The notes beneath the pieces were generated by a model that did no database searches, was not told the DNA's origin, and saw only the letters and a list, made by a program, of their open reading frames with translations. This document shows, in pieces, positions 16,647 through 24,129 of a stretch of DNA of 41,030 bases. Position 1 is the first letter of the stretch; every line of letters begins with the position of its first letter. Both the position numbers and the translations under genes were made by a program. Source of the stretch: a virus (Duplodnaviria; Caudoviricetes); IMG/VR virus record IMGVR_UViG_3300021425_000072, positions 1 through 41,030 of that record. One strand, given 5' to 3'.

Positions 16647-17660
16647 ATGAGAAAATATTTAATTGCTGCAGCAGCAGTAATGACAATGGCATGGGCAACG
16701 GTTGCTCAGGCAGATCCGTTTAAGGTTGGTTTCGTATATGTTGGACCAGTCGGCGATCATGGTTGGACATATATGCACGACAAAGGTCGTCAGCAAGTTG
16801 AAGAACACTTTGGTGATGCGGTTGAAACTGTATTTGTTGAATCAGTACCAGAAGGACCTGATGCCGAACGTGTAATGCGTGGTATGATTGCAGAAGGTGC
16901 GGACATGATCTTCACTACTTCTTTTGGTTATATGGAACAAACAGTAAAGGTTGCCAAAGAGAATCCTAATATCCTCTTTGAACATGCGACAGGTTATAAA
17001 ACAGCACCAAACCTTTCTGTATATTCCTCACGTTTTTATGAGGGTCGTTATGTACAAGGTGTAATTGCTGGTCATATGTCAAAGGCAGGCAAAGCTGGTT
17101 ATATTGCATCATTCCCGATTCCGGAAGTGATTCGTGGTATCAATGCTTTTTATCTCGGTGCAATCTCTGTAAATCCAGATTTTGATATTGACGTTGTATG
17201 GGTAAATACATGGTATGATCCAGGTAAAGAAGCAGATGCCGCAAAGGTTTTGATGGCAGGTGGTGCTGATATTATTACTCAGCATACAGATTCTCCTTCA
17301 CCTTTGGCAGCAGCATCTGCTAATGGTATTAAAGGTTTCGGTCAAGCATCAGATATGATTCAGTTTGCACCTGATACTCAATTGACTGCTATCCTTGATG
17401 AGTGGGGTCCATATTATATCGCACGTGTACAAGCAGCAATGGACGGTACATGGACTGAAACCAATACTTGGGGTGGTATGGACACAGGAATGGTTGATAT
17501 GGCACCAATGACAAATATGTCAGAAGATCTTGCTGCACATGCAGAGCATATTGCACATCATATCAAGACAGGTCACTTCAAACCATTTGGTGATCTAGAT
17601 GATGGTGCTCTTGCAACTATGATGGAATATGTCGACGGATTAGATGCGGCAAAACCCTAA
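16647..17660 (+). CDS. BMP/PnrA/Med-family ABC transporter substrate-binding protein (purine/nucleoside type)
   Basis: Signal peptide ending AQA; GFVYVGPVGDHGWT..HD.GR, FTTSFGY, FEHATGY, NTWYDPGKE, ITQHTDS. Confidence 0.93.
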   Translation: MRKYLIAAAAVMTMAWATVAQADPFKVGFVYVGPVGDHGWTYMHDKGRQQVEEHFGDAVETVFVESVPEGPDAERVMRGMIAEGADMIFTTSFGYMEQTVKVAKENPNILFEHATGYKTAPNLSVYSSRFYEGRYVQGVIAGHMSKAGKAGYIASFPIPEVIRGINAFYLGAISVNPDFDIDVVWVNTWYDPGKEADAAKVLMAGGADIITQHTDSPSPLAAASANGIKGFGQASDMIQFAPDTQLTAILDEWGPYYIARVQAAMDGTWTETNTWGGMDTGMVDMAPMTNMSEDLAAHAEHIAHHIKTGHFKPFGDLDDGALATMMEYVDGLDAAKP

Positions 17661-17667
17661 ATAGTAT

Positions 17668-18077
17668 TGTTCGATGAAGCAAATCGAAAGGTAAACTGGA
17701 CGGGGGTGCGATACCCCCCGCCTCCACCATAATGAGATTGAAATGAAAGCAAAAACTAGAAAAAAAATAAACAAAATAAATAAAAAAGAACAAAAAAGAT
17801 TAGGAAGTTCTAATGTTGTTCGTACAAAACATTTTGCTTATGGACAAAAAACTGGTGCTGCAAACAAGGGAAGATCTCTTTCCCAAGAAGAAATTGATCT
17901 CATTATGATGGGGGCGAAATAGGATCGACAGGTGCTGAATAGGTAAGTGGAGAACACGGTAGGTGACGACCGTAAATCGCACAAGACGTTAAATGCAAAC
18001 GATAACAATGCATATGGGGATTATGCTCTAGCAGCATAGTTACTCGGGGTGGGTACTACCTAGCAACAGAAGTGCCA
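17668..18077 (+). ncRNA. ssrA: Circularly permuted two-piece tmRNA (acceptor piece ~17668-17729; intervening segment 17730-17909; coding piece 17910-~18077)
   Basis: T-arm GGGGG-TGCGATA-CCCCC plus CGCCTCC-A-CCA (17702-17729) lies upstream of GGGGGCGAAATAGGATCGAC (17910). The two form a 7-bp acceptor stem with G3-U70. Tag frame 17995-18039 reads ANDNNAYGDYALAA*; 3' CCTAGCAACAGAA motif present. Outer ends approximate. Confidence 0.93.
17743..17922 (+). CDS. Basic 59 aa ORF inside the tmRNA intervening segment
   Basis: MKAKTRKKINKINKKEQKRLGSSNVVRTKHFAYGQKTGAANKGRSLSQEEIDLIMMGAK*; weak GAG-type RBS; stop lies inside the tmRNA coding piece. Confidence 0.55.
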   Translation: MKAKTRKKINKINKKEQKRLGSSNVVRTKHFAYGQKTGAANKGRSLSQEEIDLIMMGAK

Positions 18078-18095
18078 TTAATTTTTGGAGTTGCA

Positions 18096-18788
18096 ATGTA
18101 CGCAGTTGGAATATTTCTATTACAAATAGCAGCATACGTTTCTATTATACCAATGATAATGTATGCTGATTGGTATCACTATTTAATCGCTTTCTTCATG
18201 TATTTCATGAACGGATGTCTTGGTATGATTATGGGATACCATAGATTGCTGACGCACAGATCGTTTGAATGTCCTATCTGGTTTGAAAGATTTATTACTT
18301 TGTGTGCGACTATAGGTTTGACTGGACCTGCTATAGATTGGGTTGCTATTCATAAAGCACACCATAGGTTCGCTGATACTGAAAAAGACCCACATAGTCC
18401 AGATCATTTAGGTGTGTTCAGAGTTCACTTTCTTACCATGTTTGCTAAAGTGGATATAAAGTATGCAGGAAGATTACTTAGAGATAAATTTTTATTGTTT
18501 CAACGAAAGTTTTATTTTGTTCTTAATTTAATTTATGCTACTTTGCTATTTTTTGCTGACCCATTTGCATTGGTATATGCATGGTTGTTTCCAGCAGCAG
18601 TTCTCATATTATTAGGAACATCGGTTTTATCTATCAACCACAGGAATAACAAACCACATAATAGTATCATTCACGGTTTACTTACTTGGGGTGATGGATT
18701 CCACGAAACACACCATGATAATCCAAACAAAATAAGATTGCATAAATATGATATATGCGGTTATTTGATAGAGAAATGGTTTGCTTAA
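18096..18788 (+). CDS. Membrane fatty acid desaturase (delta-9 type)
   Basis: His boxes HRLLTH, HKAHH, HETHH; DPHSP; TM segments; ATG 18096 after GGAG. Confidence 0.92.
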   Translation: MYAVGIFLLQIAAYVSIIPMIMYADWYHYLIAFFMYFMNGCLGMIMGYHRLLTHRSFECPIWFERFITLCATIGLTGPAIDWVAIHKAHHRFADTEKDPHSPDHLGVFRVHFLTMFAKVDIKYAGRLLRDKFLLFQRKFYFVLNLIYATLLFFADPFALVYAWLFPAAVLILLGTSVLSINHRNNKPHNSIIHGLLTWGDGFHETHHDNPNKIRLHKYDICGYLIEKWFA

Positions 18789-18877
18789 AGTTTGGGTAAA
18801 TGCGAATCCAGTACCGTTCTGGAAGTTATATTATGCTTTTAAATACGGTATAGTGTTAGAAAGTTTACAGGAATTAG

Positions 18878-19597
18878 ATGAGTATTTGGAAAAAAAGAAC
18901 TGAACTGCCAGTCTTCAAACGATTAGAACAATTTAAGTTCGATCCAATTGAACTAGCATCAGCATATGAAGAGTTCTCTAATACTAAAACTTGGGATGGT
19001 TTGGGTAATGAATATGCTAGTTTATGTGAAACATACACAAGACTCCCGAAGATGTTTTTCAAAGAAGAAGAACTTAAAGATGTAGATTGTGTTTGTGATA
19101 TAGAATGGGAACAAGCTAGTTACCAACAACTATCATTGGTTGAATGGGATGAAGATTTTAGTTTAGACAAAAGAACTGAAAAGTCAGGAACTAGATGGGA
19201 CTCTACAGTCGCTAAAAGAGATGCTAAAGCAGATGAAAGATGGTTTCGAAAAAGAGTAAAAGATACACCAGATTATTTTAACTATGTCCTTGATACGATA
19301 GGCAAAGATATCGTCCATAGAACAAGATTTGCTAAATTAGCACCGAAGTCTGAAATAAAAGAACACATAGATTATAATACTGAGTATGGGATCCGTTTAC
19401 ATATACCGATCATCACGAATGAAAACGCAGTGTTTGGTGGTATCGGTCAAAACGGTAGAGAAGAGACCCACTTTCCAGCAGATGGAAGTGTTTGGTTTAT
19501 TAATCCTGGCGTTAAACATTGGGCAAAAAATGATGGTGATGAAGAACGTGTACATTTAATTATTTCAGTAGATAGTCAAGAGATATTGAATGCCTAA
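18878..19597 (+). CDS. Fe(II)/2OG oxygenase, aspartyl/asparaginyl beta-hydroxylase-like
   Basis: EHID...RLHIPIITN...KHWAKN...RVHLII. Confidence 0.85.
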   Translation: MSIWKKRTELPVFKRLEQFKFDPIELASAYEEFSNTKTWDGLGNEYASLCETYTRLPKMFFKEEELKDVDCVCDIEWEQASYQQLSLVEWDEDFSLDKRTEKSGTRWDSTVAKRDAKADERWFRKRVKDTPDYFNYVLDTIGKDIVHRTRFAKLAPKSEIKEHIDYNTEYGIRLHIPIITNENAVFGGIGQNGREETHFPADGSVWFINPGVKHWAKNDGDEERVHLIISVDSQEILNA

Positions 19598-20186
19598 GTT
19601 TTACCAAGAACTCAGCGATGAGTTTTCAAGTTTATGGTTGCCAAGATTCCGTTCGTTATATGATAAAGTACATGCTTCTCAAAACGCCCATCATGCTTAT
19701 TGGAAGTATGTTCTTCACCCAGATAGAATAAAATCCGATTATCTAAAAGACTTTCCATGGCTCACTGAAGTTCCTACATGGAATATAGATGAAAATTTAA
19801 TTATATTTTTTAAAAATAGTGGTAAAGACTACAACCATATAATGGCGCACAAAGATCCAGATAATGTTGTTTGGTCTATAACTATGCCATTATATGGTTG
19901 TGATAGTGATACAGTCACCACTTGGTTGAATCCCATAGAAAATGAAAATACATATCGGGCAGATGGATCTAAGGGGTATGATGATAATGTCGAAATGCTT
20001 GGTTGTGACTATAATGAAATCGAAAGTTATTCATTCAACGACAGAGCAATTATATTCAAAAGCGATGTTTGGCATAAAGCACGCACAAAGCACAACAGAG
20101 ATGAAACACGTGTATTAGCAAAACTATGGGTTCCAAATTTACAGTATGAATATATGCAAGAGGTTTTAGGTGAGCATTTATTATAA
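19590..20186 (+). CDS. Putative Fe(II)/2OG oxygenase
   Basis: AHKD...ITMPL...WHKA...TRV; paralog of the next ORF. Confidence 0.65.
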   Translation: MPKFYQELSDEFSSLWLPRFRSLYDKVHASQNAHHAYWKYVLHPDRIKSDYLKDFPWLTEVPTWNIDENLIIFFKNSGKDYNHIMAHKDPDNVVWSITMPLYGCDSDTVTTWLNPIENENTYRADGSKGYDDNVEMLGCDYNEIESYSFNDRAIIFKSDVWHKARTKHNRDETRVLAKLWVPNLQYEYMQEVLGEHLL

Positions 20187-20808
20187 ATTTCTCAGTGAAG
20201 AGTTTTCTGATTTGTGGATATCTAGAACCAGAGAACTGTATGATCATGCAATAGAAACTGGTCAATACAAAGAACTACACATGAAATATATTATTACTCC
20301 TACGCACATGCGTGAGTATTACATTGAAAAATTTCCTTGGTTAGATGACTTGCCCTTATATAATCCTAGAGAACATTCAGTTGTATTTTTTAGATTTAAT
20401 GGTTCAGACCCCGAAGTAAATCATTTTGAAGTGCATAAAGATCCGACCGAAGCTTGGGCAAATCTAAATGTACCAGTCTACAACTGTACAAAGGAAACTA
20501 GAACAGTGTGGGTAGAACCTATTGGTGAGGAATATAGTCAACACGAAGAAAGAGCAGGATCTCACATTATATCTGGACAAACGAACAGTGAACATTTGAG
20601 GTCATCATATAAAGAAGTCGAGACTATGCACATAACCGATAGAGCATGTTTATTTAAAGGGGACGAGTGGCATAAAGTAGAAGTTGATCATGATAGAGAT
20701 GAGTGGAGAGTCATGGCAAAATATTGGTCAAGGGAAAACGACTGGGATGATTTGATCAAAAAATATAGCGAGCATATTGATGAAGAATATAGCATACATA
20801 CCACTTGA
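20170..20808 (+). CDS. Putative Fe(II)/2OG oxygenase
   Basis: VHKD...LNVPV...WHKV...WRV; shares LS.EFS.LW..R.R.LYD and FPWL with 19590-20186. Confidence 0.65.
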   Translation: MSIYYKFLSEEFSDLWISRTRELYDHAIETGQYKELHMKYIITPTHMREYYIEKFPWLDDLPLYNPREHSVVFFRFNGSDPEVNHFEVHKDPTEAWANLNVPVYNCTKETRTVWVEPIGEEYSQHEERAGSHIISGQTNSEHLRSSYKEVETMHITDRACLFKGDEWHKVEVDHDRDEWRVMAKYWSRENDWDDLIKKYSEHIDEEYSIHTT

Positions 20809-21367
20809 TATTCCAAAATTTAATTTAGAATCAATTATAGAAAAATATAACTTCTATCCCCATCATCTTTATCCAGATGCTTGGGATTGTTTGCCAGTTT
20901 GCGGGAAAACTACTGATTGGAATCAGTCTGCATTTTATAAAGCATATGAAAATAGATATGACTCTGGAGAAGTGCATTGGAACATTCCGGAAATGAAACC
21001 AATCTTAGAATACTATCCAGGAGAGGTTACTCATGCTCAGGTATTAAATCAAAAAGCAAACATAGTCGCTCATAAAGACACTCCGATACTTCGTAAGCAA
21101 CCTGAACCAAATGGTTTTAAAATTCTTCTAAATAATATTTTAGAAAAAAGTTTCTATGTAAAAATAAATGGCAAAAGAATACACATAGAATTACCAAACA
21201 CAACTAATTGCTTTGCTATAAATGAACATGATATATTGCATGGAGCGACAATGCCTCAGCAAGAAAAATACATTGTGAGTTGTTTTGGTATTATAGACGA
21301 GGCAAAGCATAAAGAACTAATATCAAGAAGTGTAGAAAAATATGGCGAATATGCAATCTACTTCTGA
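20777..21367 (+). CDS. Putative Fe(II)/2OG oxygenase
   Basis: AHKD...FAINE..LHGA...K. Confidence 0.55.
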   Translation: MMKNIAYIPLDIPKFNLESIIEKYNFYPHHLYPDAWDCLPVCGKTTDWNQSAFYKAYENRYDSGEVHWNIPEMKPILEYYPGEVTHAQVLNQKANIVAHKDTPILRKQPEPNGFKILLNNILEKSFYVKINGKRIHIELPNTTNCFAINEHDILHGATMPQQEKYIVSCFGIIDEAKHKELISRSVEKYGEYAIYF

Positions 21368-21968
21368 TTATGGAATATTTCCTCTCGGTGATTATGACTT
21401 CGAGGAAACGACAGTCACATTATCAGAATATCCTGATGTGGTTGACCTTGGTATAGAGGTTGATGCCGATAGGTTATATCAAGAATATTTGAATATGAGA
21501 AAACCAAGTAAAGACCATTATTATCTCAGCATGAGTAAGAAATTTAAACTTGATGCAAAGAAAGTGATGGAAAATTTTGAAGAACTTGGATTTAAACAGG
21601 ATAATTATGGTGGGTATGGGTTTCAGAGAGCAGGTGAATATACAAAGAGCGTTTTAGATAGTTTACCTGTTAAGACATTTCGAAAACATTTTACTCTAGC
21701 AAAACCAGGATGGGTTACTAAGTTTCACTCCGATCATAAACAGTTTCAGAATCATGGATTTAGATTAGTTATACCAATGAACTGTGATGCCCATATAAAG
21801 TACAAAGAAAATGAATATAGACTTAAACGTGGATCGATGTACTTTTGGAATATTGTAAAGGAACATGCTGGTTGGAATCCAACCGATCAAGAACGTGTGA
21901 TCATTATGGCACAGATGAATAACGATAGGTTGATAAATGAAGGTAAATTGGTCAAGCAACTATTATGA
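21342..21968 (+). CDS. Fe(II)/2OG oxygenase, Asp/Asn beta-hydroxylase-like
   Basis: FHSD...RLVIPM...GSMYFWN...EHAGWN...ERV. Confidence 0.75.
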   Translation: MANMQSTSDYGIFPLGDYDFEETTVTLSEYPDVVDLGIEVDADRLYQEYLNMRKPSKDHYYLSMSKKFKLDAKKVMENFEELGFKQDNYGGYGFQRAGEYTKSVLDSLPVKTFRKHFTLAKPGWVTKFHSDHKQFQNHGFRLVIPMNCDAHIKYKENEYRLKRGSMYFWNIVKEHAGWNPTDQERVIIMAQMNNDRLINEGKLVKQLL

Positions 21969-22452
21969 TGATGTGACTATTCACAGATGTCAACCAGAAG
22001 ATATATTGACTGAAGAAATAGTGTTACGAATATTGGATGAATGTAATGATCATCCGAGACTTTGGTTTGAAGATCTTTCTAGTAAAAATTTATGGTATCT
22101 ATTAATTGCTACCGTGGATGGTAAACCAATATCAATATGTGGGTGTAGAGAAGATGGAAAAGTTTTATGTTATCTTTACACATTAAAAGAATATCGTAAT
22201 AAATATAGAGGAATCGCTCAAATAGACTATGTGCCTATTTTTATGGAAAATGCCATTACAGATAAAATATATTTAACTGTACATGACTATGATAAAAAGC
22301 ATAAAAGATTAGCAAAGGCATGGGATAGATTGATATCCTCTGGTATTCCTAGTGAGTTTCAACCCACTAGAGGTAAATGGAAATATAAAGGAATAAAGGA
22401 GTACAGAGGTGTTGACCAACACTGGTACGAACTGGATTATAAAAATATTTAA
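21937..22452 (+). CDS. Putative GNAT-fold protein
   Basis: DGKPISICG...LYTLKEYR..YRG resembles GNAT motif A. Confidence 0.45.
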   Translation: MKVNWSSNYYDDVTIHRCQPEDILTEEIVLRILDECNDHPRLWFEDLSSKNLWYLLIATVDGKPISICGCREDGKVLCYLYTLKEYRNKYRGIAQIDYVPIFMENAITDKIYLTVHDYDKKHKRLAKAWDRLISSGIPSEFQPTRGKWKYKGIKEYRGVDQHWYELDYKNI

Positions 22453-23218
22453 CAATGAATATGTTTTTCATTTAAGATTAATGTATTTGTTTAGCGTGCT
22501 GTCTGTGATAGCATGGTGTTATCTTGAACATGTCAGTGTTCTCGAGTTTATAGCAGTATTTTATGCTGGACTCACGTTCGCTCGTGTAGGTTCTGAAGCA
22601 GGATTCCATAGGTATTTCTCACATAAGTCGTACGAAACTACGAAGTTCAAAGAACGTGTTTTGTTGTGGTTGGGTACGGTAGCAGGAGTCGGAAGTTGTT
22701 TATCATGGGCGACGATGCATAGACTGCATCATAAAGACGCTGATACAGAAGATGATCCGCATAGTCCATATTTTGGCGGTTGGGTAAAACCATTCTTTGG
22801 CATACCTAGCACAAAAAATTACGATCACAAAATAACCAGAGATCTGCTTAGGGATTCACACCAAAGATTTACCCACAAACATTATTTCAAAATTAATATA
22901 GCATGGATACTTTTATTATCCGCAATATCATATGCGGTAGGAACTATGCTTCCTCTGATTATATTATTTTCTATGGCATCAATAAGTTTATGGTTGCTTT
23001 ATGGCATCACCAATACCATAGAACACAGGTTTGGTTACAGATCGTATGAAACTAAAGATGAAAGTAAGAACCAACCAATACTAAGATTATTGTTTCTTGG
23101 TGCTGGATTGCATAATAACCACCACTGGAAATCAAACTCACCGACATTCAATTTAAGAAAAAATTGGTGGGAGTTTGATTTTGATTATTTGATTATAAGG
23201 ACTTTGTTCGCAAAATGA
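22409..23218 (+). CDS. Second membrane fatty acid desaturase (delta-9 type)
   Basis: HRYFSH, HRLHH, DPHSP, HNNHH; TM segments; start uncertain. Confidence 0.92.
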   Translation: MLTNTGTNWIIKIFNNEYVFHLRLMYLFSVLSVIAWCYLEHVSVLEFIAVFYAGLTFARVGSEAGFHRYFSHKSYETTKFKERVLLWLGTVAGVGSCLSWATMHRLHHKDADTEDDPHSPYFGGWVKPFFGIPSTKNYDHKITRDLLRDSHQRFTHKHYFKINIAWILLLSAISYAVGTMLPLIILFSMASISLWLLYGITNTIEHRFGYRSYETKDESKNQPILRLLFLGAGLHNNHHWKSNSPTFNLRKNWWEFDFDYLIIRTLFAK

Positions 23219-24129
23219 ACGCACACTTCTTAGATATTGATATTCGTGATACAAATGGTCAAGATATCGCTGACATACTTAAAGAAAAGGTTATCGTTGT
23301 TTTAAAAAACCAAACGAAATCTACTGGGCATTTTACTAATTTCGTCAGTAAGATTGGTCCGATAGCAAACTGGCCACATATGGCATTTGATCCCATAACA
23401 GGTGAAGATAAACATTCATTCGATAAGTTCGTAAGTCCAGAAGAATGGGGTGACTGGGATACCTATCCAGTTCAAAGGGTGACTGGAGAAAAAGTAAATG
23501 GTAAAATGTCTGGTATATTCGGGAGCGGTAAACTAGACTGGCATGCTAATCTAAATGGTCCAACACGTGCAGACGGTGTTGCGTTACAAGGTTATAGAGA
23601 CTGTGAAAACACTTCAACAAGTTGGGTAAACACTAACAAAGCATATAATGAGATGCCACAAGAACTCATTGATAGGTGTGAAGGGGTGTATGCCGAATAC
23701 CAATATTCACCAGAAAACTGGGCAGGTGATGAAGAAACCGTCAACATGATTACTCAACATGTTCCTGGGAAGTTCCGAGGTCGTACGAAGTATAAGATGT
23801 GGTTGATTCAGGAAAATATTGCTGGATATAAAGGTGTATATTTCTACACCAATAACGACTGCAAAATTATTACAAACGATACCAAACTATATGATGATCT
23901 ATACGATCACATATTCCAAGAAAAATATATGTACACTCATATGTACGAAGTCGGGGATATTGTTTTAAGTGATCAGTTGCTAAGTTTGCACAAACGCGAT
24001 CAGAATGATGATGAAACTCTTTCAAAGAGAGTTCTTCATCGCATTACATTTGGATTATCTAATACTGATGATCGTAAATGGATTGAAGAAAAAAATATTA
24101 TTCATGACGAACCGTCAGAGATATTCTAG
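23215..24129 (+). CDS. TauD/TfdA-family dioxygenase
   Basis: WHAN (variant of HxD), T.WVN...AY..MP, YTH.YEVGDIVLSDQ..SLHKR...RVLHRIT. Confidence 0.82.
   Translation: MNAHFLDIDIRDTNGQDIADILKEKVIVVLKNQTKSTGHFTNFVSKIGPIANWPHMAFDPITGEDKHSFDKFVSPEEWGDWDTYPVQRVTGEKVNGKMSGIFGSGKLDWHANLNGPTRADGVALQGYRDCENTSTSWVNTNKAYNEMPQELIDRCEGVYAEYQYSPENWAGDEETVNMITQHVPGKFRGRTKYKMWLIQENIAGYKGVYFYTNNDCKIITNDTKLYDDLYDHIFQEKYMYTHMYEVGDIVLSDQLLSLHKRDQNDDETLSKRVLHRITFGLSNTDDRKWIEEKNIIHDEPSEIF

Follow-up and report, generated by a model that had tools for sequence, protein, structure and literature searches.

The window, that is, the whole 41,030-nt stretch of viral DNA analyzed in this work, is a fragment of a T4-like marine phage with an estimated contig completeness of 23% (CheckV). 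Among its 35 scanned ORFs are genes for a DNA polymerase, a UvsX-like recombinase, a DnaB-like helicase, thymidylate synthase and an endolysin, and the public runs containing the window sequence are labeled as marine or seawater metagenomes wherever an organism is stated. The locus of interest carries a tmRNA gene, matched by the Rfam models tmRNA_permuted (RF04321; positions 17668-18039, 116 bits at a cut-off of 47) and alpha_tmRNA (RF01849; positions 17607-18082, 94 bits at a cut-off of 50), and is a member of the permuted alpha-type tmRNAs; ARAGORN made no tmRNA call at this locus. The acceptor stem is tRNA-Ala-like: positions 17910-17916 pair with 17719-17725, and the stem includes the G3-U70 pair, the discriminator A17726 and the encoded CCA at 17727-17729. 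Since the CCA ends at 17729 and the 5' strand of the acceptor stem begins at G17910, the nucleotides between them constitute the intervening segment (IVS). The gene resembles the permuted tmRNAs of alphaproteobacteria (RF01849, RF04321) in the order of its parts (acceptor piece, IVS, coding piece), in the CCA, in the G3-U70 pair and in the alpha-type tag, and differs from them in that its IVS is 180 nt long and protein-coding. RNase P cleavage and 3' processing are established for permuted tmRNAs generally, according to the available text of the tmRNA database paper (PMC11915505), and in the window the RNase P cut site at 17909/17910 was placed from the Rfam alignment. No smpB gene was found on the 23%-complete contig, and host SmpB is therefore assumed. 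The coordinates of all features are collected in the table.

The CTAAATA heptamer just 5' of the tmRNA may be a variant of the T4 late promoter. The same motif occurs in the sister phage L086, and TATAAATA is found at a like place in L122, a locus with a close homolog of the gene described below, and in the cultured phage Melnitz. Scans of the locus for sigma-70 promoters and terminators returned nothing above chance; a small hairpin at 17868-17884, within the ORF, has a terminator-like score on the minus strand that does not exceed chance either, and is partly kept in L122. RNA runs reach the locus as assembled contigs, and those of X15 and X16 give no ends, strand or level. One contig of X15 extends over 17854-18018 and so bridges the inferred cut; it has a single difference and is consistent with an uncut precursor or with DNA carry-over. 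In X16 the coverage is confined to 17927-18077, after which the contig diverges. Located 3' of the tmRNA, at positions 18072-24129, is a block encoding an Asp/Asn-hydroxylase-type oxygenase, a TauD-like dioxygenase and a desaturase-like membrane protein, the last of which was called by eye and has no Pfam match.

Table. Features of the tmRNA locus in the window
Feature	Position	Strand	Basis
Upstream gene, Bmp-family ABC substrate-binding protein	16647..17660	+	Pfam PF02608, E 9e-49
CTAAATA, possible T4-type late-promoter variant just 5' of the tmRNA	17657..17663	+	motif list; inferred
tmRNA acceptor piece (T-arm, 3' acceptor strand, encoded CCA 17727-17729; 5' end approximate)	17668..17729	+	RF04321 and RF01849 alignments
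Intervening segment (IVS), 180 nt	17730..17909	+	sequence and Rfam alignment
Closing stem, 5' arm; overlaps the would-be ribosome-binding region	17730..17741	+	predicted fold
59-codon gene, basic peptide of an unnamed phage family	17743..17922	+	homologs, dN/dS 0.15
Closing stem, 3' arm; also codes for peptide residues 51-55	17894..17905	+	predicted fold
tmRNA coding piece (5' end = inferred RNase P site; 3' end approximate)	17910..18082	+	Rfam alignment
Borrowed TAG stop, coding-piece nucleotides 11-13; part of the alpha_tmRNA consensus	17920..17922	+	Rfam consensus line
Tag reading frame, 14 codons, alpha-type, ends ALAA	17995..18039	+	sequence and Rfam alignment

A small gene in the intervening segment and its protein family

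The ORF noticed in the preliminary description occupies 167 nt of the 180-nt IVS, and overlaps the tmRNA coding piece by 13 nt: its last Met codon has G17910 as third base, and the TAG runs to 17922. Its nesting in the IVS, its end inside the coding piece and its very basic product (pI 10.7; 16 Lys and Arg against 4 Asp and Glu residues) were all confirmed, and it follows from the sequence itself that a cut at the inferred site would remove the stop codon. Among 20,000 dinucleotide shuffles, only 79 yielded an ATG-initiated ORF that fills 167 nt or more of the IVS. The comparison of the window ORF with its L122 homolog over 46 codons gave pS of 0.52, pN of 0.12 and dN/dS of 0.15 (Fisher p = 6e-6), a value from a single pair that reports selection since the common ancestor and not necessarily at the present day. 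Four DNA runs, each from a different study, also cover the ORF; the pieces listed show 0-1 differences, with neither a frameshift nor a stop among them. The preliminary description had allowed for an A-rich spacer open by chance; with respect to conservation, this explanation is ruled out by the family of homologs, the shuffle test and the dN/dS value, and sequence comparison indicates that the IVS ORF is a real protein gene under purifying selection.

The homologs form a family that had no name. A word-index search gave seven proteins among eight candidates, an HMMER library search gave 25 representatives (taken at 50% identity) with E ≤ 0.001, and a second profile search gave 139 clusters at E ≤ 0.001 among 7989 scored candidates. 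The members share the core K-x-I-x2-E-x2-RLGSS-x-VV-x-T-x2-F-x3-Q-x-FG-x-A, of which T28, F31, Q35 and G38 are conserved in 140-141 of the 142 aligned proteins. The Lys-His pair of the window peptide (K29-H30) is found in 21 of these 142. Thirteen protein variants at about 90% identity or more retain the full frame, a count drawn from a protein database, where broken copies cannot appear. No significant match for the family was obtained in Pfam, PHROGs, NCBIfam or the PDB sequences. At the DNA level, a related-locus search by close alignment returned nothing in viral or metagenome contigs, and tblastn with a central family member gave no match in 50,697 phage records. A pattern built on the core was found at no viral locus and at two metagenome loci; one of these is the window's own record, so that L122 is the single independent close homolog with DNA.

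AlphaFold models of the peptide (pLDDT 79 and 84; pTM 0.44 and 0.41) contain helices at residues 3-20 and 48-58 joined by an extended loop, and the peptide is accordingly described as a predicted helix-loop-helix without a compact core, a shape that suggests folding on a partner. Foldseek gave no hit at E ≤ 0.001, the best VIA-align Z was 2.5 and the ESM Atlas returned no match; such fold searches say little for a peptide whose model has no compact core. The likely partner of the peptide is a nucleic acid or nucleoprotein machine, which it would contact by way of the basic N-terminal helix and the conserved T-x2-F-x3-Q-x-FG-x-A motif. That this target would be the ribosome or RNA, as charge and size alone would have it, is a tentative assignment toward which we lean less than away from it.

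Many relatives of the peptide are encoded far from any tmRNA. A motif scan of viral contigs detected 27 loci, 19 of which hold family members by HMM; within the 2.5-kb flanks, an Rfam match was found near none of the 27. The 25 neighbor proteins collected from nine loci include endolysins, holins, RusA-like resolvases, a DnaD-like loader, a methyltransferase and an HNH nuclease; these distant members belong to phage modules for lysis or replication, with no tmRNA gene close by, and their surroundings give no hint of a role in translation. One member was found in an alphaproteobacterial MAG, adjoining insertion-sequence-like genes. At L150:3647-4170 (-), in an alphaproteobacterial MAG, a member is followed by a gene resembling the C-terminal extension of the proteins P0026, P0052 and P0079, and the two modules therefore occur both fused and split. 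The IVS ORF of the viral locus L035 shares an N-terminal motif with P0027, P0039 and P0088, which are longer members of the window peptide family.

Intervening segments as a slot for small genes

The two ends of the window IVS pair with each other in a 12-bp stem, absent from the preliminary description, that extends the acceptor stem (fold z-score -6.1, matched by none of 200 shuffles). The 5' arm of this closing stem is predicted to be paired in three forms of the RNA, namely the full precursor, the excised IVS and the product of the RNase P cut alone. On a transcript ending at 17850, which stands for nascent RNA, the arm is predicted to be unpaired, and the leader is A-rich; no clear Shine-Dalgarno sequence precedes the start codon at 17743. 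The excised IVS is predicted to be a poor mRNA, because its ribosome-loading region stays paired. Closing stems are general, as a stem of at least 7 bp was found in 115 of the 122 unique long viral IVSs versus 6.5% of shuffles.

Scans of viral contigs for permuted tmRNA genes covered 120 of about 760 loci without a length filter, and, in further scans, 119 of about 150, 120 of about 260, and 32 loci. In the unfiltered scan, where 116 of the 120 loci could be parsed, 43 IVSs were at most 40 nt long, 28 were of 41-99 nt and 45 were of at least 100 nt. Pooled with the window and L122, 389 of the 393 loci were parsed, yielding 276 unique IVSs. A long ORF, defined as one covering 60% of the IVS or 40 codons, is present in 170 of the 219 unique viral IVSs of at least 95 nt; these ORFs fall into 44 BLAST families, among which single-member families may be chance ORFs, and the IMG/VR contigs may include some cellular DNA. 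The ORFs of most families tend to begin 7-23 nt beyond the CCA, on the 5' arm of the closing stem or immediately past it. The IVS is best read as a stem-closed cargo slot for small genes.

The contents of this slot are diverse. The commonest cargo is a hydrophobic ORF of 38-49 residues that ends at a TGA before the cut (L031, L042, L047, L175, L180 and 40 more unique IVSs); at the start of many of these IVSs there is a strong Shine-Dalgarno-like motif, together with a short ORF for an acidic product that overlaps in another frame. Three more very basic IVS peptides belong to unrelated families, at L207:711-854 (-), L153:725-889 (-) and L035:1211-1405 (-); their stops lie on both sides of the cut, and the L207 peptide matches phrog_16066. 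The IVS ORF at L168:691-861 (-) matches Pfam DUF6356 above the cut-off.

In the alphaproteobacterial control, a tmRNA match over the cut-off was obtained in 146 of 151 genomes, a tally that takes in one unpublished genome, with seven matches outside those listed. The model span was at most 343 nt among the matches listed, versus 372 nt in the window, and the IVS had a median of 34 nt and a maximum of 73 nt in 29 of the best-scoring 30 loci, a choice of loci that favors short IVSs. When 401 genomes were searched with a pattern for 81-141 nt IVSs, four matched, two of which have 133-nt IVSs with candidate frames of 33-38 codons. Among cultured phages, the Methylophilales phage Melnitz (MZ577097) has a 142-nt IVS in which a GGAG motif precedes an unannotated ORF (L270:1385-1549, within the annotated ssrA). 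This ORF comprises 54 codons, 41 of them inside the IVS, belongs to a family other than the window's and stops about 42 nt into the coding piece. The IVS of Pelagibacter phage Mosig is 44 nt long.

The slot can also be empty. In L086 the IVS is only 3 nt, and the alignment with the window over 17448-17731 (76%) takes in the end of the Bmp gene common to both phages, the CTAAATA motif and the acceptor piece. Public-run contigs likewise skip 170-177 nt at the window IVS, and the contig of run X17 jumps from 17730 to 17908. L122 has an IVS of 377 nt (L122:3891-4267) in a permuted tmRNA gene of its own, where the close homolog ends at its own TAA. Behind it, in tandem, lies a second gene that belongs to a different family; this is a membrane-type ORF with a relative in the IVS of L016. 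The TAA of L122 aligns in identical register to the borrowed TAG of the window, so that the junction yields a C-terminus of the same length.

Conservation of the gene did not extend to its stop position. Of 22 close homologous proteins, nine end otherwise than the window peptide: 13 have the tmRNA-type TAG end, five an own stop, three another tail and one a read-through. The proteins P0005, P0018 and P0019 are 81% identical and keep the residues encoded by both closing-stem arms with a different tail; because of this tail, they may be flanked by RNA other than the usual alpha-type coding piece.

The position of stops was further assessed by a frame test, in which an ORF without its own stop meets, depending on its frame, the TGA just before the cut, the TAG at nucleotides 11-13 or a deeper stop. 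Own stops occur in 16 of the 44 IVS ORF families, TAG in 12, TGA in nine and deeper stops in 12, with five families mixing stop classes. The ratio of the three borrowed-stop classes, TAG:TGA:deeper, is 12:9:12, as chance predicts (chi-square p = 0.76). It is 11:8:9 when each family is assigned to its majority class, and 7:8:6 (p = 0.87) for families with several members or a Shine-Dalgarno-like motif; a smaller first count gave 8:6:6 in 29 families. The counts of 8:6:6 and 12:9:12 rule out a stop inside the tmRNA as an enriched design, and stops past the cut are neither favored nor purged; the test comprises few, automatically clustered families, some of which are probably chance ORFs, and would not reveal a sensor role confined to a single family.

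Purifying selection also acts on another family, of 35-36 residue IVS peptides (L012, L014, L057, L061, L062, L077, L116 and others), in which 10 of 11 members have the same in-tmRNA TAG ending. In all 15 pairs from the six members tested, pN was lower than pS (Fisher p from 1e-5 to 0.05), and by sequence this family would be the best candidate for a conserved non-stop arrangement. Retention of TAG in 13 of the 22 close homologs and in 10 of these 11 peptides also fits selection for the ending; descent explains it in both families, since TAG belongs to the alpha_tmRNA consensus.

Expression and possible roles of the spacer gene

The reading that we favor, and consider fairly probable, is that a real gene under selection occupies the window IVS; it was probably captured from a mobile pool of phage genes, is probably translated from nascent RNA and probably just borrows the first in-frame stop of the tmRNA. 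Capture is suggested because 19 of the 27 viral motif loci are family members and none of the 27 has an Rfam match. The transcript would originate at the upstream gene or at the late-promoter-like motif (17657), and its unpaired, A-rich start region would stay exposed until synthesis, about 150 nt further on, has reached the 3' arm of the closing stem. In this interval ribosomes would load, and they would terminate at the TAG if the RNA is still uncut. Folding of the closing stem and of the tRNA-like domain would then end initiation, as the stem would hide the ribosome-loading region, and RNase P together with 3' processing would release the two tmRNA pieces and destroy the message; one transcript would thereby serve as mRNA first and as tmRNA precursor second. 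Any IVS gene would lose its message on processing, irrespective of where it stops. What a borrowed stop adds would be only a side loss, which may be tolerated, when a ribosome caught in the middle of the ORF at the RNase P cut reaches a non-stop end and its peptide is tagged. The junction was probably kept as it leaves the protein with the length of the own-stop form, and the odd position of the stop is likely a tolerated accident of this junction and not a built-in sensor.

Rescue factors of the ArfA/BrfA type are made from non-stop mRNA, bind non-stop ribosomes, recruit a release factor and contact the mRNA entry channel with a KH motif, and their level rises without ssrA. The preliminary description had proposed a selected feedback of the ArfA type, in which the cut message is non-stop, so that the peptide is normally tagged and degraded, and accumulates and acts on ribosomes if processing or rescue fails. 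We regard this as improbable. The geometry permits it, with the stop 11-13 nt past the inferred cut, and the same ending is kept in 13 of the 22 close homologs and in nearly all members of the 35-36 residue family. Like ArfA of E. coli and BrfA of B. subtilis, the window peptide is also small and basic, and its stop would be removed by processing. It contains a Lys-His pair, and ArfA and BrfA share a KH motif according to the accessible text of PMC8012679. However, the L122 homolog sits in an IVS with its own stop, the 19 members at viral motif loci have no tmRNA nearby, stops past the cut are not enriched, the excised IVS is predicted to be closed to ribosomes, and the Lys-His pair is confined to 21 of 142 members. 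The full-length and cut forms would differ by four residues, whereas ArfA and BrfA lose about ten or more; for these two, as described in the same text (PMC8012679), the truncated form is the one normally made and lacks a long tail, the cut being made by RNase III or replaced by an internal terminator, in contrast to the predicted RNase P cleavage at a tRNA-like structure in the window. The window peptide has no such long destabilizing C-terminal tail, and non-stop expression is not a trait of its family.

Membership in the ArfA family itself is rejected on the comparison of the family members and on the lack of PF03889 matches: Pfam gave none for 23 family members, and the contig gave none at E ≤ 1. 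The missing similarity does not exclude an analogy, because ArfA, BrfA and ArfT are unrelated to each other, as stated in the accessible part of PMC8012679. We give little credence to the still broader proposal of the tmRNA precursor as a self-sensing transcript, with RNase P cutting behind translating ribosomes, new tmRNA tagging the peptide of its own spacer and the peptide acting as a new, unrelated rescue modulator that builds up only under overload of host tRNA processing or trans-translation in the course of infection. If it were true, about half of the IVS gene families, those with members stopping past the cut, could be dosed alike.

Another explanation sees the ORF as a translational brake: ribosomes reading to the borrowed stop would melt the closing stem and the acceptor strand, delay RNase P and thereby time the tmRNA, the function of the peptide being a separate matter. 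The 3' stem arm and the initial 13 nt of the acceptor stem do fall within the last nine codons, and the clustering of ORF starts shortly behind the CCA in most families (7-23 nt) would suit such a role. We nevertheless doubt it strongly, since the sister phage L086 manages with no ORF at all, the class of stops ahead of the stem, with 16 families, is no rarer than any other, and conservation of the amino acids argues that the protein itself matters. Least probable of all is that the gene, functional at one time, was recently stranded in the spacer as a passenger and survives as an untranslated relic frame: the lack of a clear Shine-Dalgarno sequence and the paired loading region in the folded RNA would agree with this, but the 13 variants hold the full frame (in a protein database blind to broken copies), the DNA runs list no frameshift or stop, and the leader is predicted to be unpaired and A-rich on nascent RNA.

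A two-piece tmRNA in Melnitz and 53 phage tmRNA structures, 50 of them aquatic, were presented in PMC9004378, the main text of which, where accessible, has no occurrence of the word "intervening". The available text of the tmRNA database paper describes a tRNA gene and a repeat inside IVSs; the word ORF is absent from its main text, and a term search of its supplement gave no match (PMC11915505). The accessible portions of PMC3978253, PMC4131195 and PMC3997798 contain no IVS ORF. A literature search for protein-coding IVSs in phage tmRNA, with most subscription papers lying outside its range, found no paper. ORFs in the IVSs of Rickettsiales tmRNA genes have reportedly been noted, Mao et al. 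in 2009 being the likely source. If so, the likeness consists in a protein-coding IVS in an alpha-type permuted tmRNA, and the difference in that the slot described here is viral and swaps among dozens of unrelated genes. New in this work are the IVS peptide family, the frame test and the unannotated IVS ORF in Melnitz, and the window tmRNA is new in carrying a selected protein gene in its spacer.

The spacer of permuted tmRNA has been treated as discarded RNA, and its genes have been passed over by gene callers and curators, as in Melnitz. As the IVS is a common slot for small genes in marine phages, one transcript likely serves there as an mRNA first and as a tRNA-like precursor afterwards. 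The cultured phage Melnitz makes it possible to test the competition of translation and RNase P on one RNA, and the tagging by tmRNA of a peptide encoded in its own precursor. The window locus adds a previously unnamed family of small proteins, together with a count arguing that the geometry of a stop inside the tmRNA is mostly due to chance.
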